From: an uncultured Candidatus Saccharibacteria bacterium
Lineage (GTDB): Bacteria; Patescibacteriota; Andersenbacteria; UBA10190
Assembly: GCA_964359735.1 (NCBI GenBank)
Contig: CAYHTZ010000003.1
Location: forward strand, 21,993 to 85,992
Direction of reading: 5' to 3'
DNA length: 64,000 nt
The notes under the pieces were generated by a model that saw only the letters and a list, made by a program, of their open reading frames with translations, searched no databases and was not told the DNA's origin. Below are positions 2,484-57,809 of this stretch, in pieces; the first letter of the stretch is position 1, and every line of letters starts with the position of its first letter. Made by a program: the position numbers and the translations under genes.

Positions 2484-3718
2484 CGCTAGAAGCGGCTAAA
2501 ACAATCTTTATGCTCGGCATTGGAGGGACCGGCATGCGAGGGCTGGCGCGCCTTCTCTCTGCCCACGGGAAAACAGTGGTGGGCTCAGACCAGCAATACG
2601 ACGTGATTAAGAATTGGCCAGATCTCAAAGAGTACGACATTGTGCCTGAAGGAGAAGGCGAACGCTTGCTGAAAAAGGCGGACCTCCTGGTGCACACCGA
2701 CGCGGCCGAAAAAGATCACCCACTGATTAAGGCAGCCCAGCGGGAGAATATTCCCGTCCTGGCGTATCAAGAAGCACTGGGGGACTTTTCCCGCTCACTG
2801 ACAACAGTGGCGGTCACAGGCACTCACGGGAAGTCTTCCACGACGGCTTTTCTGGCTCACATTTTAATTGAGGCAGGAGCCGACCCCAATGTGCTCGTGG
2901 GGGCCCCTATGCCGGCGTGGGGTGGGAGTTCGAGAGTGGGGAAGAGCGATCTGTTTATTGTGGAGGCAGATGAATATAGGGAACACTTTCTGACATTCTC
3001 GCCGGCCCATGCCATCATTGTTTCTGTTGATTTCGACCACCCCGACTACTTCAAATCTCTGGAAGACGTGCAAGCGGCCTATGCGCGATTTAAGGCGCGC
3101 ATCGCGTCCGGAGGCGTTGTACTCACGACGGCGGATGTTCAGCATGAAATTGATGATGTGCCCTCTCCTTTGCCTGGGAGACACATGCAGCACAATGCCG
3201 CACTCGCGGTCAAGATGGCAGAGGTGTTGGGAGTGCCCCGCGAACAGGCAGTCGCAGCCCTCAAAACATTTCCGGGGATAGGTAGAAGATTCGAAAGGTT
3301 GGACAAGATTGGGAAGATGGATCTCTTCACAGACTATGGCCACCACCCTGCCGAGATTAAAGCCACCTTCCTGGCCACTCGAGGAAAGTTTGCCGGCCAG
3401 CGCATACTGACGCTGTTCGAAGCTCATACGTTAGAGCGCTTAAAAACTTTTTTTGACGGATACGTGGAAGCCTTATCAGGGGCAGATGGGGTACTCTTGG
3501 TACCAGTGTTTATACCGGCCGGGCGGGAGCACGAATCAGCGGAGGCAAGAGAGTGGCTCCAGAAATTAGAACGAAAACTTCCGGGTATTGTATGGCGTAT
3601 TGACGATTGGAAGGAGCTCCCAGCTCAACTTACGCAACTCTCGGATGAGTTTGACGTGGCCATTGCGTTCACCGCTGGACTCCTAGACGCAAAGTTGAGG
3701 ACTCTTTCCTTTACTTAA
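2480..3718 (+). CDS. murC: UDP-N-acetylmuramate--L-alanine ligase MurC (Mur ligase family)
   Basis: '[16 protein letters not shown]' MurC N-terminal Rossmann motif. '[12 protein letters not shown]' Mur-ligase P-loop. ATGA start/stop overlap with murG. Confidence 0.8.
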
Positions 3719-3731
3719 TAATATCTATGTA

Positions 3732-3759
3732 CCTCTCCATAGATCGATCTATGGAGAGG
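3732..3759. promoter_or_regulatory. 28-bp perfect palindrome CCTCTCCATAGATCGATCTATGGAGAGG (copy 1 of 3), candidate operator
   Basis: Read directly: perfect reverse-complement symmetry. Lies in the 61-nt gap between murC stop (3718) and the PEP-utilising domain gene (start 3780/3804). The same core recurs at 28416-28441 and 28890-28909 flanking a TrpR/YerC-like regulator gene. Confidence 0.5.
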
Positions 3760-3779
3760 TTGCCCGAAGAGGGCTTTCG

Positions 3780-4835
3780 TTGCATAGTCAGCTAGAGCTC
3801 GTAATGATCAAACTTTCGAAAGTATTCACACGTGAACGCTCACTGTTTTACATGCGCATGTGGAATGACAGCGATCGCATGGGCTTTTCCCGCTGGTTGA
3901 GTACTGATGTTCAGAACAATATGTTTTGGCGAGAGGGGAACATTAACAAGATTTCAGTTTGGTATGACCGAGAGGAATACGACCGGCTAGGAGAGCTAAC
4001 GGCCGAAAAACTCCACGTTGATTCAAAGTTATTTGAAAAAATGGTTCGTGTTTTTCACGATCTCTGGCGCCCGATAGCCCCATATGTGCAAAACGGTAAG
4101 CTCATAACATCTGCCGACGAGCTGGAAAAGTTCTACCAAGATGTGGTTGCGTGGTGGTCGGTGATGGCATTGATGTTTCTTATCCCTAATGTGCCAAGAA
4201 TCCCGAGGAAGCAACGTGAGGCGGCGCTGGCACTGCGCGAGAAGGTAGAACTTTTTTCAGATGCAATGGATCACCTCATGGTGCGCTATGTGGTAGAAGA
4301 ACTACCTCAATATAAAGAATTGGCGTGGGTTATGATGCCAGAAGAAGCTATCAAACTTGGTCGCGATGAGCTCTCTCAGTATGAGCTGGATAAGATCCGT
4401 GGGCGACTCCATGGATTCGCTCTCTTAAATGAAAAGATTTGCAGCAGGCAGGAATTGCCAGGCGCTTTAGCGAAGCAGGGAATACAGTTGGAGCAAGAAC
4501 ATACCACGGCGGGGCTGCATGAAATCAGTGGGACGCCGGCCAGCGCAGGAATCGCGCGAGGCAGGGTGCGCCAAATTTTGCTCAAGGAACAGATACACGA
4601 GCTCCAGAAGGGGGAGATCCTGGTGACAGAAATGACTAATCCTAATTACGTACCAGCCATGAAGAAGGCGTCGGCAATTGTCACTGATGAGGGAGGTATC
4701 ACCTGCCATGCGGCTATTGTCAGCCGGGAGCTGGGCAAGCCGTGCGTCATTGGCACTAAAATTGCAACGCGTGTCCTAAAAAACGGCGATGAAGTTGAGG
4801 TAGATGCAGACAAGGGAACAGTGAAGCTGCTTTGA
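3780..4835 (+). CDS. PEP-utilising enzyme mobile (His-swivel) domain protein, no PEP/pyruvate-binding barrel; N-terminal domain of unclear function
   Basis: C-terminus '[50 protein letters not shown]' is the phosphohistidine swivel domain of PEP synthase/PPDK/rifampin phosphotransferase-type enzymes. Start ambiguous: TTG 3780 or ATG 3804. Paralogue at 21879-23297. Confidence 0.7.
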
Positions 4836-5972: not shown

Positions 5973-5988
5973 GGAGTAGCGAGAAGCA

Positions 5989-7332
5989 TTGTATACTGGA
6001 ATAATGCTTCTCGTCTCTCAAGGACTTAGCAGCAGCGCACCAAGTACGCTGCTCGTGCCGGAGTTCCTGGATATGGTGGTGACATTGGCGCCAGTGCTCT
6101 TAGGGTTGGCCTGGCTTCTGATAACATTTTTTGCCTTGTGGTTTGCGCGAGAACTGTATGGCTTTATCATTGCCGTGCCCATATATTTGGGGACGATAAA
6201 ATATACTATTCTGCAGGTAGTTTTGCCCGAGGATGCAGAGGAGACGCCGAAGTCGATGGAGGATGCGATCTCACACTGGGGCGGGATACACTACAATCCT
6301 GATGTGAAGGAGAGGTACTTTGATGGCTTTGTGGATTGGTGGTACAGCCTTGAGGTGCAATGCACTCCCGAGAAGGTGCGTTACTTTCTCTTTATCCCCA
6401 CTATATTCCGGCCTTTCTTTGAAGGCGTCATCTACGGCCAGTACCCCGAAGCAGAAATTCAAGAAGCCGAGGACTACACGCTGAACTATGATTACAGAAG
6501 AGTCCGGCAGGACTTCGAAGTGTACGGCACCGATATGATTTTGTCGCTGGACGATGTGTACCCGATTCGCTCGTATACTCAATACGGCGACCCCTTGTCT
6601 CCTACGGAAACATTCATTGATCCGCACCAATCCATGATTGAGGCTTACTCAAATGTTAACCCGGGCGAGGAATACTGGTTCCAAGTAATTGTTTGGCCGG
6701 CGAGTCCGGCTAAGAAAAAATCTTGGGTGGCGAAGGGGGAAAAAGAAATTGCTCAGATTACCGGGCGGGCAAAGGAGGCCGGCCCCGGCTTCTTTAAACA
6801 ACTGAGAAAGTTTTTTACGCGCATCCCTCAGGAGGTTGTGAACGTGCTGCGCGGCCGGCACGCCTCCGCCGGGGAGGAAGGAGAAGAGCAACTCGATGTC
6901 CACTTCTTCGATCCCGTGGAAACCATAAAAATGGAATCGATTTTGCGGAAAATTTCTCGAGATGTGTACCGCTGCATGGTGCGCCTGATATACATTGCGC
7001 CCAAGGGGAAGCTGCATAAGCCTAACATCGGCCGCGCCATTGGCCCTTTCAAGCAGTTTTGGGGCGCGAACGCATTTAGGCCTGATCCAAAAACAAAGTC
7101 GAATGGGGTGGATTACATCATGAAGGAGCGGCGCCGGCTTTACCGTGAACGCACTATCTTGGCCGAGTACCAGTGGCGGGACCCTTTGGGCATGGGACGC
7201 GGACCATATATGCTGACGGCGGAGGAAGTAGCCACGGTGTACCATTTCCCCACCAAATGGATACAGGCGCCTGTTTTAGAGCGCGCGAAAGCGGGAACCT
7301 ACTCGGCACCGGAGGAGGTACCGTATGTCTGA
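5989..7332 (+). CDS. Membrane protein (2-3 N-terminal TM helices + large soluble domain), partner of the downstream T4CP-like ATPase
   Basis: Hydrophobic N-terminus 'VVTLAPVLLGLAWLLITFFALWFA...IIAVPIYLG', then 360-aa hydrophilic domain. Stop overlaps the start of the next gene (ATGTCTGA), indicating translational coupling. Confidence 0.55.
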   Translation: MYTGIMLLVSQGLSSSAPSTLLVPEFLDMVVTLAPVLLGLAWLLITFFALWFARELYGFIIAVPIYLGTIKYTILQVVLPEDAEETPKSMEDAISHWGGIHYNPDVKERYFDGFVDWWYSLEVQCTPEKVRYFLFIPTIFRPFFEGVIYGQYPEAEIQEAEDYTLNYDYRRVRQDFEVYGTDMILSLDDVYPIRSYTQYGDPLSPTETFIDPHQSMIEAYSNVNPGEEYWFQVIVWPASPAKKKSWVAKGEKEIAQITGRAKEAGPGFFKQLRKFFTRIPQEVVNVLRGRHASAGEEGEEQLDVHFFDPVETIKMESILRKISRDVYRCMVRLIYIAPKGKLHKPNIGRAIGPFKQFWGANAFRPDPKTKSNGVDYIMKERRRLYRERTILAEYQWRDPLGMGRGPYMLTAEEVATVYHFPTKWIQAPVLERAKAGTYSAPEEVPYV

Positions 7333-9728: not shown

Positions 9729-9773
9729 TCCACCAGTTTGAATCCAGTCAAGGGTCAGTGCTAGGCTTCTTGC

Positions 9774-11651
9774 ATGCGAAACATTAGTACAAATGAGCTG
9801 CGGGAACTCTACCAGCAATTCTTTGAGGGCAAAGGCCATACGCGGATTCCCAGCGCTCCGCTGGTGCCGGAGAACGACCCGACCACCCTTTTTACAGGAT
9901 CGGGAATGCAACCGCTCGTTCCGTACCTTTTAGGAGAGCCACACCCGCAAGGGAAGCGTCTCGTGAATTCGCAGAAATCATTTCGAGCCGAAGATATCGA
10001 GGAAATTGGTGACAACCGCCACACGACGTTTTTTGAAATGTTGGGCAACTGGTCACTCGGCGACTACTTCAAAGAAGAGCAGCTGTCGTGGATATTTGAG
10101 TTTTTGACTGAGGTGGTGGAGTTGGATCCCAGAAATTTATACGTAACTGTTTTTGCTGGCGATAAGAAAGCAAACATTCCCCGAGATACGGAATCCGTGG
10201 AAATTTGGAAGCGCTTGTTTCAAGAGAAGGGAATAGAAGCTCGTGACAGTGAGCTTCTCACTCCCCAGCAAGGAGGGCGGGAAGGCATGCAAGGAGGAAG
10301 AATTTTTTATTTCGGCGCTAGCAAAAATTGGTGGAGCAGAGCCGGACTCCCAGAGAACATGCCTCCCGGCGAGCCGGGCGGACCTGACTCCGAAATTTTC
10401 TATGATTTTGGAGCAGAGCATAATAGCGCTTTTGGCGAGCATTGCCATCCCAACTGCGATTGTGGCCGATTTATGGAAATTGGGAACTCTGTTTTCATGG
10501 AGTTTGTGAAACAGGCGGATGGCAGTTTTGTCTCTCTTCCTCAGAAAAACGTTGACTTCGGCGGCGGACTGGAGCGTATGGTGGCGGCGGCCCAACACAC
10601 TCCAGATATTTTTTCCGCGGTTGATCCATTGCGAGCGATCATTGAGCACATTGAGAACACGACTCACACCACCTATCAGAGCTCCGCGAACAAGGCTTCC
10701 TACCGGATCATGGCGGACCATATGCGTGCGGTGACGCTCCTTATCGGTGATGGCGTAGCTCCCTCGAACACGGATCGAGGATACGTGGTGCGTCGGTTGA
10801 TTCGACGCGCCGCGTACCACGCCCAGAAGCTAGCGGCTGAGGATGCTATCATCCAGCGGCTGGCCAACGTGGTCGCCGACCAATATGCCTCTGCCTACCC
10901 AGATGTAAAAAAACAATCGCGTCAGGTGGGGCACGCTATTCGGGAGGAAGTGCAAAAGTTTGGCGTGAGCTTGCGGCGGGCGCTAGTCAAGCTGGAGACC
11001 ATCTTAAACAAAGAATCGGGAATTTCTGGAGCAGAGATCTTCGAACTCAACACTGCCCATGGACTGCCACTCGATGCGATTTGGGATCGTCTCAAAGAGA
11101 GGAATATTCCCATCGGCTCAGGTGTTCAGGAGGACGTTCGGCGTAGGATTGCCGACCACCGGGAGAAATCCCGCACAGCGGGGACAGGGAAGTTTAAAGG
11201 AGGACTGGCTGACCACTCGGAAAAATCTGTCCACTACCACACGGCCACGCATTTGCTGCACCAGGCGCTGCGGGACGTGCTGGGAGAACATGTCTTTCAA
11301 AAGGGTAGCAATATTACGCCCGAGAGGCTCCGATTCGACTTTTCGCACACGGACAAAATGACACCCGACCAAATTCAGAAAATAGAAAACCTGGTGAACC
11401 AGAAAATCCAGGAGGATTTGCTCGTCCTCCGCGAGGAGACGACAGTCGCGGAAGCGAAGCAGAAGGGGGCGCTGGGCTTATTTGAAGAAAAGTATGCCGA
11501 CCGTGTGAGTGTATACTCTATGGGGAATTACTCCTGCGAAATTTGCGGGGGTCCGCATGTGGCACACACGGGGGAGTTGGGTCATTTCAAGATTACGAAG
11601 GAAGAGTCTGCCGGGGCTGGTGTACGCCGGATAAAAGCCGTATTAGAGTAG
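9774..11651 (+). CDS. alaS: Alanine--tRNA ligase (short form, 625 aa; catalytic + editing domains, C-terminal C-Ala domain apparently absent)
   Basis: N-terminal 'FFEGKGHTRIPSAPLVPENDPTTLFTGSGMQP...FEMLGNWSLGDYFKEE'. Editing-domain 'HTATHLLHQALRDVLG...GGPHVAHTGELG'. Confidence 0.9.
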   Translation: MRNISTNELRELYQQFFEGKGHTRIPSAPLVPENDPTTLFTGSGMQPLVPYLLGEPHPQGKRLVNSQKSFRAEDIEEIGDNRHTTFFEMLGNWSLGDYFKEEQLSWIFEFLTEVVELDPRNLYVTVFAGDKKANIPRDTESVEIWKRLFQEKGIEARDSELLTPQQGGREGMQGGRIFYFGASKNWWSRAGLPENMPPGEPGGPDSEIFYDFGAEHNSAFGEHCHPNCDCGRFMEIGNSVFMEFVKQADGSFVSLPQKNVDFGGGLERMVAAAQHTPDIFSAVDPLRAIIEHIENTTHTTYQSSANKASYRIMADHMRAVTLLIGDGVAPSNTDRGYVVRRLIRRAAYHAQKLAAEDAIIQRLANVVADQYASAYPDVKKQSRQVGHAIREEVQKFGVSLRRALVKLETILNKESGISGAEIFELNTAHGLPLDAIWDRLKERNIPIGSGVQEDVRRRIADHREKSRTAGTGKFKGGLADHSEKSVHYHTATHLLHQALRDVLGEHVFQKGSNITPERLRFDFSHTDKMTPDQIQKIENLVNQKIQEDLLVLREETTVAEAKQKGALGLFEEKYADRVSVYSMGNYSCEICGGPHVAHTGELGHFKITKEESAGAGVRRIKAVLE

Positions 11652-25290: not shown

Positions 25291-25346
25291 GAACTTTCGG
25301 GCTTGCACAGTAGCCTAAAGCGATTATACTGGCTATTCTTTTACGT

Positions 25347-27983
25347 ATGGCACTTTTTGGGCTTTTCAAAACTACTTCTCGTCATGAGAAGGCCGCTACC
25401 ACCTATACCGGAACGGTAGAGGCTATCAATAAACTCGCGCCTGAAATGAAAGCGCTTTCTGATGAGGCGTTGGCCGCACGCGTTACCCAGCATAAGGGAA
25501 AAAGCTGGGAAGACCTGCAAACACATGTGGCTGAAATTTTTGCGGCGGTGAGAGAAGCATCCGACCGGACCTTAAAGCTGCGGCACTTTGACGTGCAGCT
25601 CACCGGGGGGCTGGCGCTGCTGGAGGGAAGGATCGCGGAAATGAAAACTGGAGAGGGTAAAACTCTGGTGGCAACGCTGCCTCTCACCTTCGCGGCGCTC
25701 GCAGGCCGCGGGGCTCACTTGGTGACAGTCAATGACTACCTCGCTCGCCGAGACGCCGAATGGATGGCGCCTATTTACCGTTTCTTTGGTCTGTCGGTGG
25801 GGATAGTGGTGCCGGGGCAATCCAGCGAAGAGAAACGTGCGGCGTATGCGGCTGACGTCACCTACGGCACAAATAATGAATATGGCTTTGATTACTTGCG
25901 CGACAATATGGCGCAGCGGCGAGAAGACTTGACCCAGCGGGAGCTTACCTATGCGATTGTGGATGAGGTCGACAGCATCTTAATTGATGAGGCGAGAACA
26001 CCTCTCATTATCTCGGCGCCGGATGCCGAATCCACGCAGCTTTATGTGCAATTCGCGAGGCTGGTGCCACAGCTCAAAGAGAACGTTCACTATAACTTGG
26101 ACGAAAAGCGCAAGGCGGCGACATTGACAGACGATGGGGTAAATGAAGTGGAACGAATTTTAGGTATGAGCAATATCTATGAGGAAAAGGGCGTCCGGTT
26201 TGTGCACCATTTAGAACAGGCACTCCGGGCTCATTCGCTCTATCATCGCGATAAAGATTACGTGGTACAAGACGGACAAGTAAAAATAGTCGACGAGTTT
26301 ACCGGACGTATTCTCGAGGGCAGGCGGTATTCTGAGGGCCTCCACCAAGCGCTGGAAGCTAAGGAAGGAGTAGCAGTACAGCAAGAAAGCCGGACACTCG
26401 CTACAATCACTTTCCAGAATTACTTCCGTTTGTACCAACGGCTCGCCGGCATGACCGGCACCGCCGTCACCAGCGCCGAAGAGTTTGAGCGCGTATACAA
26501 CTTAGAAGTGGTAGTCGTTCCCACCGACAAGGCCATGGTTCGAAACGATAGAACCGACCGCGTGTTCGTGAATGAAAATGCAAAGTTCCAGGCCGTGGTG
26601 AAAGAGATTAGGGAACGCCACGCTAAAGGGCAGCCGGTGCTGGTGGGCACCATTGCGATCGAAAAATCGGAGCGCTTATCGGCCTATTTGCAACGGGAAG
26701 GAGTCCCGCATGAGGTGCTGAATGCTAAACACCACGCGCGCGAGGCGGAAATTGTGGCCAAGGCGGGGCAGAAGGGAACAGTCACTATTTCAACTAACAT
26801 GGCCGGCCGCGGTACTGACATTAAGCTGGGTCAAGGAGTGGTGGATCTCGGCGGGTTATTCATTCTGGGCACTGAGCGGCATGAAGCCCGGCGCATCGAC
26901 AACCAGTTGCGGGGAAGATCTGGCCGCCAAGGAGACCCAGGAGAAACACAGTTCTTTGTCTCACTGGACGATGATGTCATGCGCATCTTCGGAGGAGATC
27001 GGATTAAGAACCTCATGCAACGCCTCAAGTTGCCGGAAGACGAGCCCATCGAAAACCGAATGGTCAGCCGCGCTATTGAAAGCGCGCAGGAGCGGGTAGA
27101 GGGCTACTACTTCGACATGCGCAAACATGTCCTCTCCTACGACGACGTGTTGAATCGCCAGCGCAATGCAATTTATACCTTGCGTAAGAGTGTCTTGCTC
27201 GACGGCAAGTGGAAAGATTTTGGCAAGGAATCGCGGGAATTACCCGCCGCCATTCAAGATGTCATCCGCGACCAAGCCGGGGAGTTTGTACGAGCGCACA
27301 CCGGTGAGGGCAGACCGGAAGATTGGGATTTGGAGGAGTTGCGCGAGATTGTATTCACGCTGACGGGCAAGCGGGAGACATTTTCGGTGGATGATTCTGA
27401 CGGCATAGAATCCGCTCGAGAGAAATTGACTGAAGACGTAGCCAAGGCGCTCCTGGGACGGTTAGCAGAACGTGAAAAACAATTTGGCAGCGATGTTATG
27501 CGCGCGCTCGAGCGTGCCGCTACACTGCGGGCAATTGACACGTACTGGATGGAGCACCTAGATACCATGGATTACCTGCGGACGGGGATTGGGCTGCGCG
27601 GCTACGGCCAGAAAGACCCGTTGGTTGAATACCAGCGAGAGGGGCACCAGCTCTTCCAGCGCCTCCTAGCTACCATCAAAGGCACGATCGTGGAAATTGT
27701 GTTCAAGGCTGAGCCCACTATGGCTGAGCGGGCGTCGGCAGAGGAGCAGCCCAAAGGGGTTACCGCCCAACACCAAGAAGTCTCCTTGCACCAAACGGCG
27801 ACCGGGGCCGCCTCCGCTCCGGCCGGAGCTTCGGCGAGCCAAGGCAGCCAGCGCGTACAAACGTCAGTCGAGCCACTCAAAAACCCTTACAAAAATGTCG
27901 GCCGCAACGACCCATGCCCGTGCGGCAGTGGCCTAAAGTACAAGAAGTGCGGCCTGATTAATGCCCCTCAACACCGTGGATAA
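25347..27983 (+). CDS. secA: Preprotein translocase ATPase SecA
   Basis: 'MKTGEGKTLVATLP' Walker A, DEAD-like 'VDEVDSILIDEARTPLIIS', C-terminal zinc-binding 'CPCGSGLKYKKCG'. 878 aa. Confidence 0.95.
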   Translation: MALFGLFKTTSRHEKAATTYTGTVEAINKLAPEMKALSDEALAARVTQHKGKSWEDLQTHVAEIFAAVREASDRTLKLRHFDVQLTGGLALLEGRIAEMKTGEGKTLVATLPLTFAALAGRGAHLVTVNDYLARRDAEWMAPIYRFFGLSVGIVVPGQSSEEKRAAYAADVTYGTNNEYGFDYLRDNMAQRREDLTQRELTYAIVDEVDSILIDEARTPLIISAPDAESTQLYVQFARLVPQLKENVHYNLDEKRKAATLTDDGVNEVERILGMSNIYEEKGVRFVHHLEQALRAHSLYHRDKDYVVQDGQVKIVDEFTGRILEGRRYSEGLHQALEAKEGVAVQQESRTLATITFQNYFRLYQRLAGMTGTAVTSAEEFERVYNLEVVVVPTDKAMVRNDRTDRVFVNENAKFQAVVKEIRERHAKGQPVLVGTIAIEKSERLSAYLQREGVPHEVLNAKHHAREAEIVAKAGQKGTVTISTNMAGRGTDIKLGQGVVDLGGLFILGTERHEARRIDNQLRGRSGRQGDPGETQFFVSLDDDVMRIFGGDRIKNLMQRLKLPEDEPIENRMVSRAIESAQERVEGYYFDMRKHVLSYDDVLNRQRNAIYTLRKSVLLDGKWKDFGKESRELPAAIQDVIRDQAGEFVRAHTGEGRPEDWDLEELREIVFTLTGKRETFSVDDSDGIESAREKLTEDVAKALLGRLAEREKQFGSDVMRALERAATLRAIDTYWMEHLDTMDYLRTGIGLRGYGQKDPLVEYQREGHQLFQRLLATIKGTIVEIVFKAEPTMAERASAEEQPKGVTAQHQEVSLHQTATGAASAPAGASASQGSQRVQTSVEPLKNPYKNVGRNDPCPCGSGLKYKKCGLINAPQHRG

Positions 27984-28404
27984 CGACCACCAGAAACAGA
28001 GAATTCTGGGCTTTCTCAAACATCACCAGATAGGTGTAATTGCCACTACCAAGAGCGGTTTGCAGCCAGAAGCGGCGGCGGTTGAATATGGAGAAACAGA
28101 AGACTTGGAACTTATCATTGATACGTTTGTGAATTCCCGAAAATGGGGGAATATCCAGAAAAATCCCCGGGTAGCCTTTGTCGTTGGTTGGGATCAAGAT
28201 ATTACAGTGCAATACGAAGGCAGGGTAACTCAATTGCAGGGTGAAGAGCTTACGAAGAGTAAGAATACTTACTTTGCGAAAAATCCACGCGCTCAAAAAT
28301 GGGAAGGGAGAGAAGGGGTTATATATTTCAAGATTGTTCCCACCTGGATTCGCTATACAGATACAAATAAGAATCCTTGGGAAATATTTGAACTCACCTT
28401 TTAG
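27961..28404 (+). CDS. Pyridoxamine 5'-phosphate oxidase-like FMN-binding split-barrel protein
   Basis: 'ILGFLKHHQIGVIATTKSGLQPEAAAVEYGE...NPRVAFVVGWD' typical PNPOx-like family pattern. 147 aa. Confidence 0.7.
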   Translation: MPLNTVDNDHQKQRILGFLKHHQIGVIATTKSGLQPEAAAVEYGETEDLELIIDTFVNSRKWGNIQKNPRVAFVVGWDQDITVQYEGRVTQLQGEELTKSKNTYFAKNPRAQKWEGREGVIYFKIVPTWIRYTDTNKNPWEIFELTF

Positions 28405-28415
28405 AACTCATCAAT

Positions 28416-28441
28416 CTCTCCATAGATCGATCTATGGAGAG
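28416..28441. promoter_or_regulatory. 26-bp perfect palindrome CTCTCCATAGATCGATCTATGGAGAG (copy 2 of 3)
   Basis: Read directly. Lies between convergent stops of the PNPOx-like gene (28404) and the TrpR/YerC-like gene (28432-28434, overlapping). Could act as a bidirectional hairpin or second operator. Confidence 0.45.
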
Positions 28442-28884
28442 GCTCTGCGAGAGCCGACCACAGATTCGGAAATGCCGCGAGTGATGAGATCAATAATCAG
28501 CCAGCGTGGATCGCGATGTCGGAGACGGGGAATGAGGTTACGCCTGTGCTGCTCACGCCACTTCTCATCACGCCGTTGCCTAGCACGGATTTCGTGATAG
28601 TCGCGTACAACATGCTTAAGCCAGCCATCAACTGATTGAATAGTCGAAAAACCAATGCCAGTTTCTTCACGGACAGTATAGTACGACTTCCCCTGCAATA
28701 AGCCCTCAGCAGCCTGCAAACGGCGGCCAATCATGATGAGCTCGCTTGCTGTAAGCAGTCTCGACAAGAATTCGTATAACTCTTTTTTCGTCTTCAAGCC
28801 GTGGAGCGCTTCCACGAGAGGGTCAATAATCGCCTTCCGTTCTTTCATGCTCAGGGCGGCGTAATCAAACCGGGGCATACTCAT
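28432..28884 (-). CDS. TrpR/YerC/YecD-family DNA-binding protein (Trp-repressor-like HTH)
   Basis: 'LLTASELIMIGRRLQAAEGLLQGKSYYTVREETGIGFSTIQSV' matches the YerC/YecD TrpR-like HTH (LLTPxExxMxxxRLQxAxxLLxGxSYREIxxxTGxSxATISR). ATG 5 nt from the 28890-28909 palindrome. Confidence 0.75.
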   Translation of the reverse strand: MSMPRFDYAALSMKERKAIIDPLVEALHGLKTKKELYEFLSRLLTASELIMIGRRLQAAEGLLQGKSYYTVREETGIGFSTIQSVDGWLKHVVRDYHEIRARQRRDEKWREQHRRNLIPRLRHRDPRWLIIDLITRGISESVVGSRRASP

Positions 28885-28889
28885 ACCTT

Positions 28890-28909
28890 ACCATAGATCG
28901 ATCTATGGT
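28890..28909. promoter_or_regulatory. 20-bp perfect palindrome ACCATAGATCGATCTATGGT (copy 3 of 3) in the divergent promoter region
   Basis: Read directly. Sits between the divergent starts of the TrpR/YerC-like gene (28884, -) and the TIM-barrel gene (28951, +). Confidence 0.5.
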
Positions 28910-28950
28910 GATATGGACGAAGAGTCTGACATATCGTAGGTTAGATCTTT

Positions 28951-29874
28951 ATGATCATCGGATTCAAAACTGGGCCGAGGAATTGGGATGTGGCGCAAAA
29001 AATCGTGGAGGAAGACGGCGCCACTATGTGCGAAGCGTGGTTTAACGTGGGGAAAGAAAGTGAATACCAAGAAATGTTTGCCTGGCTGCAAGAGCACAGT
29101 GTGAAAATCGGGCTGCATCACTGGGGCCTGGCGCAGAAGGAATTTAAAACCAATCTCTCCACGAACAATTCGGCGGTGCGCAAAGAAAGCCTGGCACAGA
29201 TGAAACACACTATCGACATCGGTAAAGAAATTGGCGCAGCGTATGTGAATGTACACCCGGGGGCACGGTGGCTGGAACGGATTAATTTTTCCACGGATGA
29301 CCAAGAACGAGTAGAAGGAAGCGAAACTCCACCGGACGCAGCGCGGGACCTGCTGCTTGCCGGAGCAGCCGAGCTCAACTCTTATGCCGAAGAGCGTGCT
29401 GTATTGTTTACCGTAGAAACCTTGCCGGGAAGGGAAGCGTACAATTCTCTCAGGCGCGAGGGCATCTATGACTCAGGCAACCCTCCGCTGGCATGGATCG
29501 AAGAAATAGGTTCCCGCGGCGGATATGTTGCCAATGACATTACTCACAGCGCCTCGGTAGTAGCCTTGGCGGATAGCTCGCCGGCAGGCATGTGGCAGGG
29601 CCTGCTGGATTTCACCCGTCGCGTGGCTCCGCACACAAAACTCGTGCATGTGAACACGATGATCCCTCCTTTCGACGGCAGGGATTCTCATAATGGATTG
29701 CTGCCGGCCGATTTTTCCCAAGGCAGCGTTCCTACTCGCGAGCAAATCGTACAATTGCTCTCTTTATTCGCTCAACGAGACGACGTGTACGTTGTGCCGG
29801 AACCCCAAATTCAGTTTACCCGGGAAAACTTCCTGGCACTCAAGGAAATTGCCGAAGAGGCCAAAGTCGCTTAG
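28951..29874 (+). CDS. Sugar phosphate isomerase/epimerase-like (xylose isomerase-like TIM barrel) protein, putative
   Basis: 'MIIGFKTGPRNW...VKIGLHHWGL...NLSTNNSAVRKESLAQMKHTIDIGKEIGAAYVNVHPG' resembles the AP-endonuclease-2/xylose-isomerase-like TIM-barrel family. Family assignment from pattern only. Confidence 0.5.
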   Translation: MIIGFKTGPRNWDVAQKIVEEDGATMCEAWFNVGKESEYQEMFAWLQEHSVKIGLHHWGLAQKEFKTNLSTNNSAVRKESLAQMKHTIDIGKEIGAAYVNVHPGARWLERINFSTDDQERVEGSETPPDAARDLLLAGAAELNSYAEERAVLFTVETLPGREAYNSLRREGIYDSGNPPLAWIEEIGSRGGYVANDITHSASVVALADSSPAGMWQGLLDFTRRVAPHTKLVHVNTMIPPFDGRDSHNGLLPADFSQGSVPTREQIVQLLSLFAQRDDVYVVPEPQIQFTRENFLALKEIAEEAKVA

Positions 29875-46744: not shown

Positions 46745-47263
46745 ATGGCCCATGAGACAATAATCGCACTCCTGGAGCGATACGTGCCTGAACGCTACGT
46801 GGGCTCGGCCAAGCAATTCCTGAAATTTGCGGTGGTAGGCTCGGTCGGCGCCATCGTGGATTTCGGCAGCTACAACATTATGACGCGCCTCTTCGACTGG
46901 AACACGATTTACCACGTTTTCGGCCTTCAGATTATCGCCGCCAACCTGGTGAGCGTCTTCGTGGCGATTATGTGTAATTTTCTTTTGAATAAGTATTGGA
47001 CATTCCGTAACCCGAGCAAATCTGTGCTGCAGCAGGGGGCCGGCTACTTTACGCTCAACTTCATTACCTTTGTGCTGAACCAAATTCTGACTTCTTTCTT
47101 CGCGTTTCAAGTGCCGATCGTGGGGGCGGTCTTCGGGAATCAGCGAGATAATGCAGCTAAGGTAATTTCAGTCGGCTTTATTCTCTTTATCAATTTTTTT
47201 GGCAGCAAATTCATAATCTTCCGCAAAAAGCCTGTGCAAACAGTAGAGAATTCTGTAGGGTAA
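46745..47263 (+). CDS. GtrA-family membrane protein (polysaccharide/glycosylation-associated)
   Basis: 'FAVVGSVGAIVDFGSYNIM...ANLVSVFVAIMCNFLLNKYWTFRN' GtrA signature, 4 TM. Confidence 0.75.
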   Translation: MAHETIIALLERYVPERYVGSAKQFLKFAVVGSVGAIVDFGSYNIMTRLFDWNTIYHVFGLQIIAANLVSVFVAIMCNFLLNKYWTFRNPSKSVLQQGAGYFTLNFITFVLNQILTSFFAFQVPIVGAVFGNQRDNAAKVISVGFILFINFFGSKFIIFRKKPVQTVENSVG

Positions 47264-47272
47264 GGTTGAAAT

Positions 47273-48682
47273 ATGACCACACTCTACCGGAAATACCGGC
47301 CCCGGGAGTTCCAGGACATCATGGGGCAGGACCACGTCACCAAGACGTTAGCCGCCGCTGTCGAGAAGCAGAGAATTGCCCACGCGTATCTCTTTTACGG
47401 CGCACGGGGAACGGGAAAGACCACGACCGCTCGTGTACTGGCACAGAATTTGGGAGCTTCGGGACTCAACGTGATTGAAATTGATGCGGCTTCCAACCGG
47501 GGCATCGACGACATTCGCTCACTCCGGGAGAACGTGGCGCTCTCGCCCACGGAAGGAAAATACAAAGTGTACATCATTGACGAAGTGCACATGCTCACAA
47601 AAGAAGCTTTCTCAGCATTGCTTAAAACACTCGAGGAGCCGGTAAAACACGTGGTTTTCATTTTGGCTACGACTGAGCTCCACAAGGTGCCGGCGACAAT
47701 TATCTCGCGCTGCCAGGTCTACCGTTTTCGCCGAGCCACCGATGAGGAAATGCGGCAGCGCCTGTCATGGATCTTGCAGCAGGAGAAGCGGGAGGTAGCG
47801 GATGACGCGATAGACTTCCTCGTAGCCCGCAGCGACGGCTGCTACCGGGATGCTGAGTCTCTCCTAGGACAAGTGCTCACCTGGAAAGAGGGGAAGATAA
47901 CCGCGGAGGACCTGGCCTCATTCCTGGGATTGCCAGAGCGCGAACTGTTAGAGCAATTTCTGGCGGCACTGGTGGGCGGTAGCGCCCAGGCGGCGCTCTC
48001 CACCATCGACGCCGTCTACAACGAAGGGGTAGACCCAGACCAATTCCTCCATGAATCCATACGCGCGGCGCGGGACGAAGCCCTTCGACTTGCTACGCTC
48101 GCTCAGGGTAAAGCCGCAGATATGCAAAAGTTATCACGGTTACCGGTAATTATTCGCGCCTTACTACAGGCGGTACAAGATTTGGCGTACGTGCCGGAGC
48201 CCCGGGTAGCGCTACAGCTGGCGGCGCTCTCTGTGACAACTTCGAGTGAAATCGTGCCCCGGGGTTCGCAGGCTGCTCCGCCACCTGCGAAAGCATTGGC
48301 GCCGGCTCTTATCAAAAGTAAAAAAGCCCCCGAGCAGCCAGGCAACGTGAGTGCCGTCAAAAAAGTCTGGGCCAAGCTCATCACGAACGTAAAATCCGCC
48401 AACCCTGTGGCCTCAACGTTTTTGCGGGCAACAGATCCGACAGCGTGGGGAGAAGGTATCATAACAGTGCGAGTGCAATATCCACTGCACCGCAACTTTT
48501 TTGAGAGGCCGGAGAACAAAAAAATAGTGGAAGAAGAGCTGAGCAAACTTTTAGACACTCCCGTGACGGTGCGCTTTCAGTTAGAAGAGCCGACCATAAC
48601 TTCAGGAGTGGCAGTTCAACAGGTCCAGAAGCAAGAAGAGGACCTCTTCGAGGCGGCCAAGCAAGTGTTTGCAAAGAAGTAA
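47273..48682 (+). CDS. dnaX: DNA polymerase III subunit gamma/tau
   Basis: 'LYRKYRPREFQDIMGQDHVTKTLAAAVEKQRIAHAYLFYGARGTGKTTTARVLAQ', 'IIDEVHMLT', 'TIISRCQ'. Confidence 0.9.
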   Translation: MTTLYRKYRPREFQDIMGQDHVTKTLAAAVEKQRIAHAYLFYGARGTGKTTTARVLAQNLGASGLNVIEIDAASNRGIDDIRSLRENVALSPTEGKYKVYIIDEVHMLTKEAFSALLKTLEEPVKHVVFILATTELHKVPATIISRCQVYRFRRATDEEMRQRLSWILQQEKREVADDAIDFLVARSDGCYRDAESLLGQVLTWKEGKITAEDLASFLGLPERELLEQFLAALVGGSAQAALSTIDAVYNEGVDPDQFLHESIRAARDEALRLATLAQGKAADMQKLSRLPVIIRALLQAVQDLAYVPEPRVALQLAALSVTTSSEIVPRGSQAAPPPAKALAPALIKSKKAPEQPGNVSAVKKVWAKLITNVKSANPVASTFLRATDPTAWGEGIITVRVQYPLHRNFFERPENKKIVEEELSKLLDTPVTVRFQLEEPTITSGVAVQQVQKQEEDLFEAAKQVFAKK

Positions 48683-49540: not shown

Positions 49541-49606
49541 TCAGCAGTTTTGTTGAGATCACCTGGCTTGCGAAAGCTGTGGTTTGACCGTTACATAGAA
49601 CGTATA

Positions 49607-49704
49607 TTCCCGGGGTCGTCTAACCACCGCCTCAAGCGGGGCTCCGCCAAAGGCGGGAGTGGCTCCCGCAGCAGCGGAGTTCCGCCAGCTGGCGGGAACA
49701 GGAC
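49607..49704 (+). repeat. tRNA 5'-half-like repeat unit A (starts TTCCCGGGGTCGTCTAA; conserved CCGCC-AAA-GGCGG hairpin; internal expansion)
   Basis: Shares its first 16 nt with the tRNA-Gln at 50030 and about 80% identity with unit B (49959-50028). Ends ...GAACAGGAC, 7 nt before the GIY-YIG ATG. Confidence 0.5.
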
Positions 49705-49710
49705 TTGCCT

Positions 49711-49974
49711 ATGTCTTACTTCACTTACGTTCTCCAGAGTCAAAAAACAGGTCGGTATTACGTAGGTTCAGCTACAAACATCCCAGCGCGACTTAAAAGA
49801 CATAACTCCGGGTATGTACGATCAACAAAAGCGGGTCTCCCTTACATTTTGGTTTATCAAGAGGAGCATCCAACTAAACAAGATGCGTATCGTCGAGAAA
49901 GAGAAATCAAAAGGTATAAAGGTGGAAATGCTTTCAAAAAGCTAGTACAATCGTCACACTCCGGGATCGTCTAA
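49711..49974 (+). CDS. GIY-YIG nuclease family protein (small, YhbQ/UPF0213-like)
   Basis: 'YFTYVLQSQKTGRYYVGSATNIPARLKRHNSG...PYILVYQEEHPTKQDAYRREREIKRYKG' gives GIY...YIG, R and E of the GIY-YIG fold. Stop codon TAA lies inside repeat unit B (atcgTCTAA). Confidence 0.75.
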   Translation: MSYFTYVLQSQKTGRYYVGSATNIPARLKRHNSGYVRSTKAGLPYILVYQEEHPTKQDAYRREREIKRYKGGNAFKKLVQSSHSGIV

Positions 49975-50028
49975 TGGCCACCGCAGTAGCGGGGTCCCGC
50001 CAAAGGCGGGGACAGGACTCTGGAGGTA
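49959..50028 (+). repeat. tRNA 5'-half-like repeat unit B (CTCCGGGATCGTCTAA...GTCCCGCC-AAA-GGCGGGGAC hairpin...ACAGGACTCTGGAGG)
   Basis: Diverged copy of unit A. Ends 1 nt before the intact tRNA-Gln, whose 5' 16 nt it repeats. Confidence 0.5.
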
Positions 50029-50029
50029 T

Positions 50030-50103
50030 TCCGGGGTCGTCTAAAGGCAGGACGGGAGGCTTTGGACCTCCTAATATAGGTTCGATTCCTATCCCCGGAA
50101 CCA
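50030..50103 (+). tRNA. tRNA-Gln (anticodon UUG), CCA encoded
   Basis: Hand-folded. Acceptor TCCGGGG/CCCCGGA 7 bp. D-arm GTCT-AAAGGCA-GGAC. Anticodon stem GGAGG/CCTCC with loop CTTTGGA (U33, anticodon TTG). T-arm ATAGG-TTCGATT-CCTAT. Discriminator A + CCA. Confidence 0.8.
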
Positions 50104-50154
50104 CGTCGGCAAAATTTTGACTTTTGGGGGATTTTTATAATAGTGTGATGCCAT

Positions 50155-56702: not shown

Positions 56703-57809
56703 ATGCGCCTATCAGCTACTCTCGCAGTTTCCCTGAGCCTACTTTTAGTTCCCATGGTAGGACTCGCGGCGGTATTTGTAACCGACGAAGAAACAGCGCA
56801 GTTGACTGAATCAGTGAGCGATGACGTATATGCCGCGAGCCAGACAGTGCGCATTTCTGGAAATGTAACAGGAGACGTAGCGGCGGCCGGGGAGAAAGTG
56901 GAGATTACTGGCAACGTAACACAGGACGTGCACGCGGCTGGGGAAACGGTAAGCCTTGAAGGCGAGGTTGGTGATGATGTGCATGCGGCGGGAGCAAACG
57001 TGGCACTCTTGGGAAAAGTAGCGGGTGACGCTTTCTTGGCGGGATCCGAGGTTATGGTGGGTGAGGAAGCATCGGTTGGCGGAGATGTATATGCGGGTTC
57101 TTCGAATTTGGTTATCTCCGGCAACGTACAGGGAGATGTATGGGCGGCTGGGCAGGTCCACGTTACGGCGGGAGCGGTGATCAACGGAGGTCTCCTCGTT
57201 ATGAGCAACGAAGCTCCAGTGATCGATGAAGGGGCTCAAATCGCTGGCGAAGTGAAATTGGAAGCGTTGACACACGATGACCGCGAGCGCCCCTTTCAGC
57301 TCATGGGGTGGGTACGGTCAGTGGTTTCTCTCTTTATAGTTTCGCTGGTGCTCGTGTACGGTGCACGGGCGCTTACCACATCAACGGTACGCACGGTGGT
57401 AACGAAGAGCTGGCGATCCCTCTTAGTGGGAGGGCTCTGGACTCTTCTTTTTGTTCCGGTCAGCCTTATCTTGCTCGTTACTATCGCGGGTATTCCTCTC
57501 GCTTTGGGGGTGCTGGCGTTCAGTGTTCTCGCGTATATCATGGCAACAGGCATCGCTGCTGCCCACGTAGGCCGGTGGATCATGGGGAAAGTGGCTCGAG
57601 AGGGCACCCAGGAAATAACCTGGGCGCATGCGTTGTTGGGAGCCGTAGTGTATGAAAGCGTACAACTCCTGCCCGGGGTGGGAGAACTCCTCACATTTAT
57701 TTTGGTTCTCTTCTTCTTGGGGGCAACTCTCTTAACATTCTTTAACTTAATCCGCCACCATTATGGCAAACCAAGTGCAGGCGCTCAGCAAAACCCAGCC
57801 TCCGCATAA
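56703..57809 (+). CDS. Bactofilin-repeat (polymer-forming cytoskeletal, DUF583-like) protein with signal/TM N-terminus and C-terminal multi-TM domain
   Basis: Repeats 'ISGNVTGDVAAAGEKVEITGNVTQDVHAAGETVSLEGEVGDDVHAAGANVALLGKVAGDAFLAG...' typical of bactofilin beta-helix rungs. Hydrophobic C-terminal third. Confidence 0.55.
   Translation: MRLSATLAVSLSLLLVPMVGLAAVFVTDEETAQLTESVSDDVYAASQTVRISGNVTGDVAAAGEKVEITGNVTQDVHAAGETVSLEGEVGDDVHAAGANVALLGKVAGDAFLAGSEVMVGEEASVGGDVYAGSSNLVISGNVQGDVWAAGQVHVTAGAVINGGLLVMSNEAPVIDEGAQIAGEVKLEALTHDDRERPFQLMGWVRSVVSLFIVSLVLVYGARALTTSTVRTVVTKSWRSLLVGGLWTLLFVPVSLILLVTIAGIPLALGVLAFSVLAYIMATGIAAAHVGRWIMGKVAREGTQEITWAHALLGAVVYESVQLLPGVGELLTFILVLFFLGATLLTFFNLIRHHYGKPSAGAQQNPASA

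Follow-up and report, generated by a model that had tools for sequence, protein, structure and literature searches.

A long TrpR-like regulator gene from the Candidate Phyla Radiation and the conserved palindromes that bracket it as its probable operators

In the stretch of DNA analyzed here, 64,000 nucleotides (nt) from the genome of an uncultured Candidatus Saccharibacteria bacterium (hereafter the window), a gene for a regulator of the TrpR family lies between two palindromes that share one and the same 18-nt core, and a third copy of this core is found between murC and the gene that follows it. Comparison with orthologous loci gives good support to the view that this gene encodes a predicted autorepressor from a long clade of the TrpR family, specific to the Candidate Phyla Radiation (CPR), with a conserved bracket of two putative operators and an extended -10 promoter of the leaderless type. 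We regard it as fairly likely that the protein encoded inside the bracket has the three palindromes as its cognate operators and represses its own gene, because (i) the bracket is conserved, (ii) its copies co-vary within genomes, (iii) the 5′ copy is fused to the predicted promoter, and (iv) the motif is not dispersed in the window and the orthologous flanks surveyed. The preliminary description of this DNA, made from the letters of the window, had already suggested that the palindromes are the protein's own operators and proposed autoregulation; on the same four grounds the former is very probably right and the latter probably so.

To our knowledge, almost nothing has been learned experimentally about the regulation of transcription in Patescibacteria/CPR, and a search of the literature at hand found no paper dealing with regulators of the TrpR-like kind in either Patescibacteria or Saccharibacteria. 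A defined regulator, a predicted operator of about 18 base pairs (bp) with variants that follow the lineage, and a precisely placed leaderless extended -10 element would together make up a compact and testable system.

The palindromes and the gene between them

The gene and the three palindromes are the following:

28432-28878, minus strand: gene of the TrpR-fold regulator, 148 residues from the conserved start MPRFDY (PF01371, AlphaFold 2 (AF2) model, alignments)
28888-28911, no strand: O1, predicted 5′ operator, core dyad with halves CCATAGATC and GATCTATGG at 28891-28908
28416-28441, no strand: O2, 3′ palindrome, 26 bp, perfect, its 18-bp core identical to that of O1
3731-3760, no strand: O3, third copy, a perfect 30-bp palindrome of the 3′ type, outer arms CCTCTCC/GGAGAGG

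The core, CCATAGATCGATCTATGG, has three exact matches in the whole window, at 3737, 28420 and 28891, where 0.02 would be expected by chance and none of 100 dinucleotide shuffles reaches three; beyond these, the window holds no match at three mismatches or fewer. The dyad consensus is CCAnnnAT-CG-ATnnnTGG, that is, 8+2+8. O1 comprises a perfect 20-bp palindrome (28890-28909), which extends to 24 bp (28888-28911) with one mismatch. O2 contains the stop codon TAG of the regulator (28432-28434, on the minus strand) and fills the 27-nt gap separating the convergent stops of the regulator and of a PNPOx-like gene (28404), and O3 begins 13 nt past the stop of murC and lies 20-44 nt ahead of the next gene. 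The two palindromes that flank the regulator had been described at 28890-28909 and 28416-28441 with a common 18-nt core, and both their coordinates and their sequences check out in the window.

The distance from O1 to the gene, on the other hand, has to be revised. Since all the orthologues begin with M-[PGA]-[KR]-F-D-Y in the alignments, there is little doubt that the gene starts at its second ATG (28878) and not at the first (28884), so that the palindrome would stand 11 nt upstream of the start codon rather than 5 nt as first described, and its core would span approximately -30 to -13 counted from the A of that ATG.

The open reading frame (28432-28884, minus strand) matches the Pfam family Trp_repressor, PF01371, over residues 21-99, its 45 bits being well above the cut-off of 27; it narrowly misses the NCBIfam model TIGR02531 (YerC/YecD; 41.3 bits, cut-off 42.2), and it stays far below the TrpR equivalog TIGR01321 (18.6 bits, cut-off 67.25). 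Its only domain matches are Trp_repressor and yecD_yerC, and the Pfam/NCBIfam scan found no transposase, recombinase or HUH domain. In the AF2 model (predicted local distance difference test, pLDDT, 84.9 overall), the protein has a TrpR-like core at residues 11-90, then a helix of basic character at 94-115, and lastly a hydrophobic helix at the C-terminus, 124-146, for which the pLDDT is about 60-75. When this model is compared with the PDB by Foldseek, the best matches are the YerC-type structures 3kor, 3frw and 3g1c, with TrpR next, and a sequence search of the PDB agrees; all of the top 34 Foldseek matches are YerC-type or TrpR, with template modeling scores of 0.60-0.72 on the target. The regulator is thus predicted by the model to adopt the TrpR-like all-helical fold with its helix-turn-helix (HTH).

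The family is not small: 292 representative clusters fall below E = 1e-10, and 1368 fall below E = 1e-3. Members of the clade with as little as 28% identity still keep a C-terminal motif, R-H-R-x-P-x-(W/F)-L-L-x-(D/N)-L-L; it takes the form R-H-R-D-P-R-W-L-(I/L)-I-D-L-(I/L) (residues 107-148, window 28432-28560), and in distant members the protein terminates in ...FLLLNLLLD. An oligomerization interface, membrane targeting or a degron are the candidate roles for this motif.

Conservation of the bracket

Searches with the protein gave eight relatives, a number raised to 41 by a profile search, among them a partial protein, 99% identical, annotated from a metagenome-assembled genome of Patescibacteria; a metagenome scan with protein alignment added one further locus only (L006). 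The comparison set consists of 13 distinct orthologous loci (designated L003, L004 and so on) from separate samples, at 39-75% identity. The 5′ dyad is present in all 13 of the loci that have upstream sequence, reduced in L119 to the center and the right half, and the 3′ dyad in 12 of the 13 that have downstream sequence, the exception being L007, while L010 is truncated. A flanking dyad conserved around such genes in related genomes, which the preliminary description had named as something to look for, is thus what the comparison found.

The core itself varies from genome to genome (CCATAG.., CCACAT.., CCATTC.., CCACAC.., CGACAT.., CCATATTA..), and yet the copies at the two ends of one gene are nearly alike. 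Examples by locus are:

Window: CCATAGATCGATCTATGG
L005, L007 and L118: CCACATATCGATATGTGG
L008: CCATTCATCGATGAATGG
L119: CCACACATCGATGTGTGG
L123: CGACATATCGATATGTCG
L121: CCATATTACATAATATGG

In 12 loci the dyad has the form CCAnnnATCGATnnnTGG, and in L121 it is CCATATTA-CA-TAATATGG. The distance between cores, as computed by script, averages 2.4 within a genome as against 5.7 between genomes, a separation equaled in none of 20000 permutations of the labels; the within-genome mean includes a mis-centered site of L119, whose distance, corrected by hand, is 6 and not 14, which would lower the mean to about 1.6. The most conserved segment of the dyad is the central ATCGAT, and C-C mismatches are tolerated at position +/-4.

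As for dispersal, copies were surveyed in the window and in about 100 kb of orthologous flanks (about 165 kb in all). A position weight matrix built from 23 sites recovers only the three 29.9-bit matches in the window, where a shuffled window gives about one match of at least 8 bits, and it finds no additional sites in the roughly 65 kb of flanks of L005, L117, L118, L119 and L123. Across 185,579 species genomes, the source genome not being among these, the exact 18-mer has two unrelated single matches (BMS3Bbin05 bacterium and a Micrarchaeota archaeon). In viral contigs the degenerate dyad has 106 single-copy matches, approximately the chance estimate for 14 specified bases, and 2.9 million such contigs contain no relative of the protein. 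The generic dispersed repeat that the preliminary description had considered as a way for its reading to fail is therefore not what the matrix scan of the window and the orthologous flanks found.

Some further observations concern these same sequences. The next-best matrix match in the window, CCAGTGATCGATGAAGGG (57216-57233, 11.5 bits, inside the gene 56703-57809), fits 11 of the 12 specified operator positions and is probably due to chance, even though hand arithmetic gives an expectation of only about 0.14 one-mismatch matches per 64 kb. The codons of the recognition helix (S-T-I-Q-S-V-D-S-W) resemble the operator with two mismatches, as CCACCATTCAATCAGTGG or CAATCAGTCGATAGTTGG, in L003 (387), L004 (1449), L005 (1326) and L006 (76), a likeness probably due to chance, given that the coding sequence is conserved there. 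The palindrome also tends to coincide with breaks in the assemblies: the first 30 nt of contig L007 are precisely a 30-bp dyad (1-30), and in L119 a run of N (9946-9955) stands about 45 nt upstream of the 5′ site.

A predicted leaderless promoter fused to the 5′ copy

Between O1 and the start codon, and overlapping the former, there is a predicted promoter:

28885-28893, minus strand: extended -10 promoter TGG-TAAGGT, hexamer at 28885-28890

The hexamer TAAGGT finishes 6 nt ahead of ATG 28878. The center of the 5′ dyad falls exactly 21 nt before the conserved start in nine loci (the window, L003, L004, L007, L008, L009, L010, L117 and L118) and 22 nt before it in L005 and L119, the spacings of L009 and L119 having been corrected from a reading of the sequence. 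In these 11 loci the core is followed by TGG and then by a hexamer, which is TAAGGT, TAACAT, TAGGAT (four times), TAGGGT, TAGAAT, TACAAT, TAATCT or TACATT; the TA and the final T are invariant and the middle three bases vary, as do, freely, the next 6-7 nt. In other words, TGn-TAnnnT occupies -15 to -7 from the A of the start codon, which as a predicted extended -10 element is the canonical geometry of a leaderless mRNA. Five of the 11 hexamers lack Shine-Dalgarno (SD) character, and hence what is conserved would be a -10 element rather than a site for ribosome binding. The overlap of the dyad with what appears, from sequence, to be the regulator's own core promoter is in this way conserved in the orthologues. 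A role of the 5′ palindrome as a hairpin that sequesters an SD sequence was also considered and rejected, given the five hexamers that are not SD-like and the invariance of TA...T and of the 6-nt spacing.

In the two most distant loci, L121 and L123, the dyad is 54-61 nt from the start, and the fusion with a leaderless promoter therefore belongs to the closer clade.

In the window at large, promoters of the leaderless type seem to be the usual kind: a TAnnnT precedes the first start codon by 5-8 nt in 15 of 59 genes, as against 4.2% of random start triplets (P = 1.6e-8), and an SD sequence, even loosely defined, is found in only 11 of the 59. The TAnnnT often has TG upstream, for example in murG (TGGTAGAAT-N6-ATG), and other examples are at 1290-1313, 9753-9776, 25326-25349 and 47252-47275. 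Elsewhere in the window, directly after a sigma-70-r4/HARE-HTH gene, there is a hairpin with a 13-bp stem (5976-6015; GAGAAGCATT...AATGCTTCTC) whose loop carries TGTATACT, followed by 6 nt and ATG 6004; the sequence is a different one, and the layout of palindrome, extended -10 and leaderless start is equal.

The 3′ copies and the proposed mechanism

Compared with the 5′ copies, the 3′ copies are longer palindromes with fewer mismatches, and in most loci each arm measures 13-16 bp. They usually lie between convergent genes, beginning anywhere from 9 nt ahead of the stop codon to some 80-90 nt past it, and they are mostly without TAnnnT on either side, their outer arms being GGAGAG, GGAGGG or GGTGAGG. 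In O2, neither strand carries a -10 element. As RNA, the copies of the 3′ type are predicted to fold into hairpins of -13 to -28 kcal/mol (O2, -19 to -21 kcal/mol; O3, -21.8 kcal/mol), and those of the O2/O3 type rank among the strongest 3′-end hairpins of the window. None of the copies is followed by a run of T and the terminator scan calls none of the sites, so that, of the two parts of an intrinsic terminator, the hairpin is present and the U-tract is absent; no known RNA family in Rfam overlaps the palindromes. The spacing between operators of the O1-O2 type ranges from 471 to 575 bp across loci, and a helical phasing of these distances was sought with no convincing pattern. Taken together, the 3′ copy would probably be a second, auxiliary operator and/or a hairpin or roadblock, the choice between second binding site and hairpin being the one already posed in the preliminary description.

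It is background knowledge that dimers of the TrpR family bind palindromes of 18-20 bp and that the autoregulation of TrpR is documented. From the position of the -10 element, transcription would start at or beside the A of ATG 28878 and give a leaderless mRNA, and, if the palindromes are indeed the operators of the regulator, a dimer on O1 (-30 to -13) would block RNA polymerase, in a classical negative autoregulation. O2 could then serve as an auxiliary operator for the same protein, cooperating with O1 by looping out some 470 bp of DNA, perhaps by means of dimer-dimer contacts of the C-terminal helix specific to the clade. Alternatively, O2 could act as a protein roadblock or as an RNA hairpin, which would end the transcript of the regulator and shield this lone gene from read-through from SecA-PNPOx. 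O3 would mark one more target, the gene with a PEP-utilizers domain that follows it, or another gene boundary.

A conserved second operator at the 3′ end of the gene would be unusual for the TrpR family. If it were true that O2 loops the DNA or acts as a roadblock, this would illustrate how a single gene can be set apart from its neighbors in small genomes that lack canonical terminators; if there were only autoregulation plus a hairpin, the case would be one of routine regulator annotation.

Alternative explanations

Several observations weigh against reading the palindromes as the regulator's own operators. The 3′ copies are strong hairpins right behind stop codons, which a role at the RNA level would explain equally well. 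The palindromes reach 26-30 bp, exceeding the footprint of a single dimer of the TrpR type. The recognition helix, STIQSVD, is invariant among close orthologues though operator positions 4-6 differ, so that the argument from co-evolution of protein and DNA rests on linkage and not on matched changes of residues. Finally, L121 (low in GC, 39% identity) has four copies in 1.8 kb, one per intergenic gap of more than 50 nt, in the manner of a repeat element: these palindromes, of 30-44 bp (2485-4328; core TACCATATTA-CA-TAATATGGTA), fill four successive gaps, those of the regulator, an HD-domain gene, a weakly nucleoside-deoxyribosyltransferase-like gene and Maf, and every one of them has TGGTAATAT on both strands.

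The palindromes could be RNA hairpins only, that is, terminators without a U-tract or stabilizers of 3′ ends, bidirectional between convergent genes, in which the protein would be irrelevant. This would suit the strong folding of the 3′ and murC copies (-17 to -28 kcal/mol; z-scores, -3.3 to -7.2), their start at -9 to about +90 nt from stop codons, their being more perfect than the 5′ copies, and the fact that other genes of the window likewise end in hairpins without T-tails. Nevertheless, a terminator needs no sequence match to the 5′ palindrome, yet the two co-vary in every genome; the 5′ copy is upstream of the presumed start of transcription; the would-be loop of the hairpin, ATCGAT, is the best conserved segment; the mismatches in the arms are not enriched for G-U-compatible pairs (4 vs. 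12 in the 3′ copies); the sites lack the U-tract and escape the terminator scan; and among the other gene ends of the window, about 57 in number, just one carries the sequence. We hold this explanation to be unlikely. It is quite improbable, in turn, that the sites serve a different factor, be it another DNA-binding protein or a methylation/restriction system, of which the TrpR-like gene would be a conserved target. The constancy of the recognition helix just described speaks for it, as does the presence in the core of GATC, TCGA and ATCGAT, which are common methylase or restriction motifs, in most genomes; to be set against this, sites tied to one gene in 13 genomes and nearly absent elsewhere are the signature of a local, autoregulated regulator and not of a global factor, and the variant of L121, with its TTACATAA center and neither GATC nor TCGA, retains the architecture.

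The gene and its palindromes could also be thought of as a mobile or invertible cassette, or as an element similar to the repetitive extragenic palindromic sequences (REPs), in which the palindromes would be recombination sites or terminal repeats, comparable to the genes of REP-associated tyrosine transposases (RAYTs) between REPs. The gene is certainly bordered by mutually inverted repeats, solo copies do stand at gene ends (3731-3760 in the window; 746-763 in L009; 3766-3795 and 4289-4328 in L121), and the bracketed regulator of L008 (1620-2207) is inverted relative to both flanks when compared with that of L117 (8977-9498). These two loci have a common neighborhood, with LepA on one side and, on the other, two small genes (g93/g97 and g119/g96) and a dTDP-sugar isomerase, 76% identical, to which L117 adds a methyltransferase-like gene; the intergenic flanks are too diverged for the breakpoints to be mapped onto the palindromes, and the inversion is established at the level of genes. 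It is what recombination between mutually inverted palindromes would give, and rare events of homologous recombination, to which any two inverted repeats are open, can account for it. Trp_repressor is the sole domain, with no transposase, recombinase or HUH domain found by the scan, each contig has a single cassette, the neighborhoods form conserved groups, the 2.9 million viral contigs hold no relatives, and about 165 kb hold no dispersed copies. We therefore treat the inversion as a by-product of the bracket and not as its purpose. From this analysis, a mobile origin seems very improbable, and operators of the TrpR-fold protein, autoregulatory in function, are what we continue to propose.

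Relationship to known systems

The closest of the known systems is HisR. The family YerC/YecD had been called largely uncharacterized in the preliminary description, which is outdated, as the YerC of B. subtilis is now known as HisR, whose repression depends on histidine and whose 20-bp operator, cacTTTAnnnnnnTAAAgtg, has been defined (PMC9413887). In Proteobacteria the HisR motif is TGTAnTArnnnnyTnTTACA, and autoregulation is predicted for about half of the hisR genes; a conserved bracket of two sites around hisR is not described there (PMC9413887). The regulator of the window shares with HisR the family PF01371, its nearest structures (3kor, 3frw and 3g1c, of the HisR/YerC type) and, presumably, the general character of a small dimeric HTH repressor with a palindrome of about 20 bp. 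It differs in length, HisR having fewer than 100 residues and the protein of the window 148, with conserved basic and hydrophobic C-terminal helices; in the motif, cacTTTAnnnnnnTAAAgtg in HisR as against CCAnnnATCGATnnnTGG at the loci of this regulator; and in the absence of his neighbors, besides the TIGR02531 score below its cut-off. Because operator, length and gene context differ, the regulator is not an orthologue of HisR and is not filed as such.

The TrpR of E. coli, which like HisR has fewer than 100 residues and lacks the C-terminal extension of the clade, offers a textbook likeness in its fold and in a palindromic operator over its own promoter that serves negative autoregulation. 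In contrast, there is only one operator at trpR, its mRNA is leadered, and TrpR uses tryptophan as corepressor, and the score of our protein against its equivalog model is the low one given above.

Outside the family, the arrangement recalls LacI (O1-O2), GalR (OE-OI), DeoR and the CI of phage lambda (OL-OR), where an operator at the promoter is accompanied by a second, promoterless and often stronger operator that is hundreds of bp distant and lies inside the regulated gene or past it; the repressor gene of lambda has operators on either side. These repressors belong to other protein families, and looping at the present locus, with the higher-order oligomerization that it needs, would have to work with a spacing of 471-575 bp that lacks clear phasing. 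The likeness to REP/RAYT systems consists of a gene between two palindromic copies, other genes too having copies at their 3′ ends, and the difference in that a RAYT is a transposase of the HUH/Y1 class and REPs number from tens to hundreds, whereas here there is an HTH repressor fold without a catalytic domain and the copies are few.

Neighboring genes and possible targets

The regulator is a lone minus-strand gene within a long plus-strand run, with SecA and PNPOx on one side and a TIM-barrel gene, SecD and SecF on the other. The genes and elements next to the three palindromes are:

27961-28404, plus strand: PNPOx-like gene (PF01243, 1.5e-13), convergent, the last of the SecA-PNPOx run that faces the 3′ end of the regulator
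28951-29874, plus strand: xylose-isomerase-like TIM-barrel gene (PF01261, 8e-14), divergent, with a gap of 66 nt to the open reading frame at 28884
3780-4835, plus strand: candidate target of O3, phosphoenolpyruvate (PEP)-utilizers mobile domain (PF00391, 1.3e-27), N-terminal region without assignment, start at TTG 3780 or ATG 3804
3695-3722, plus strand: weak sigma-70-like promoter match, TTGAGG-16-AATAAT, a consensus match only

The divergent TIM-barrel gene, whose product has no sequence relative in the PDB, has a leaderless-type -10 of its own, TAGGTT (28937-28942), 8 nt before its ATG; as an alternative, the promoter scan places a promoter overlapping the ATG. The center of O1 is about 51 nt upstream of this start codon, outside the likely core promoter, and hence the control of the TIM-barrel gene by O1 that had been suggested at the outset is unsupported; judging from these positions, a simple occlusion of its promoter by O1 is unlikely. 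Regulation of the 3780-4835 gene by O3 is suggested by position. The promoter match at 3695-3722 has nine of 12 consensus bases, where 0.3 such matches are expected in shuffles, and it would put O3 at about +3 to +30.

Across the loci, the neighbors include SecA, PNPOx-like, TIM-barrel, SecDF, MazG-like, HD, Maf and glycan genes, and his genes are absent from the neighborhoods of the window and of the orthologous loci. The neighborhoods fall into groups with the SecA side (window, L003, L006), with MazG-like genes (L003, L009) and with methyltransferase-like genes (L004, L010, L117). L009 has an extra operator-like site, CAATAGAACGATGTATGG (746-763, 16.8 bits), between its MazG-like and HAD genes, and in L003 a divergent gene at about 1-75 is MazG-like, as judged from its N-terminal sequence. 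There are hints here of a theme of nucleotide house-cleaning (L009, L003, and L121 with HD and Maf).

CPR bacteria are generally without amino-acid biosynthesis. One could go further and suppose a class of long TrpR-like regulators, "self-bracketed" throughout the CPR, in which the operators and the C-terminal helix would loop the protein's own leaderless gene into an insulated single-gene domain that evolution could flip (as in L008 vs. L117, the operators being inverted repeats), in which the sites might double as protein-dependent signals of gene end where canonical terminators are lacking, and whose regulon might center on nucleotide house-cleaning and salvage (MazG-like, HD, Maf, HAD), with a ligand related to nucleotides and not to amino acids. 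This extension, taken as a whole, is speculative and doubtful.

A possible tRNA-associated insertion elsewhere in the window

At 49600-50105 there is a gene for an 89-residue protein with a GIY-YIG domain (49705-49974, PF01541, 1e-13) directly upstream of tRNA-Gln(ttg) (50030-50103). The 5′ end of this tRNA, TTCCGGGGTCGTCTAA, is echoed at about 49608 and about 49958, and a GC-rich hairpin repeat, AGCGGGG..CCGCCAAAGGCGGG, stands on both sides of the gene, at 49635 and 49988; Rfam reports only the tRNA in this interval. The locus looks like an insertion of the homing-endonuclease type beside or into a tRNA gene.

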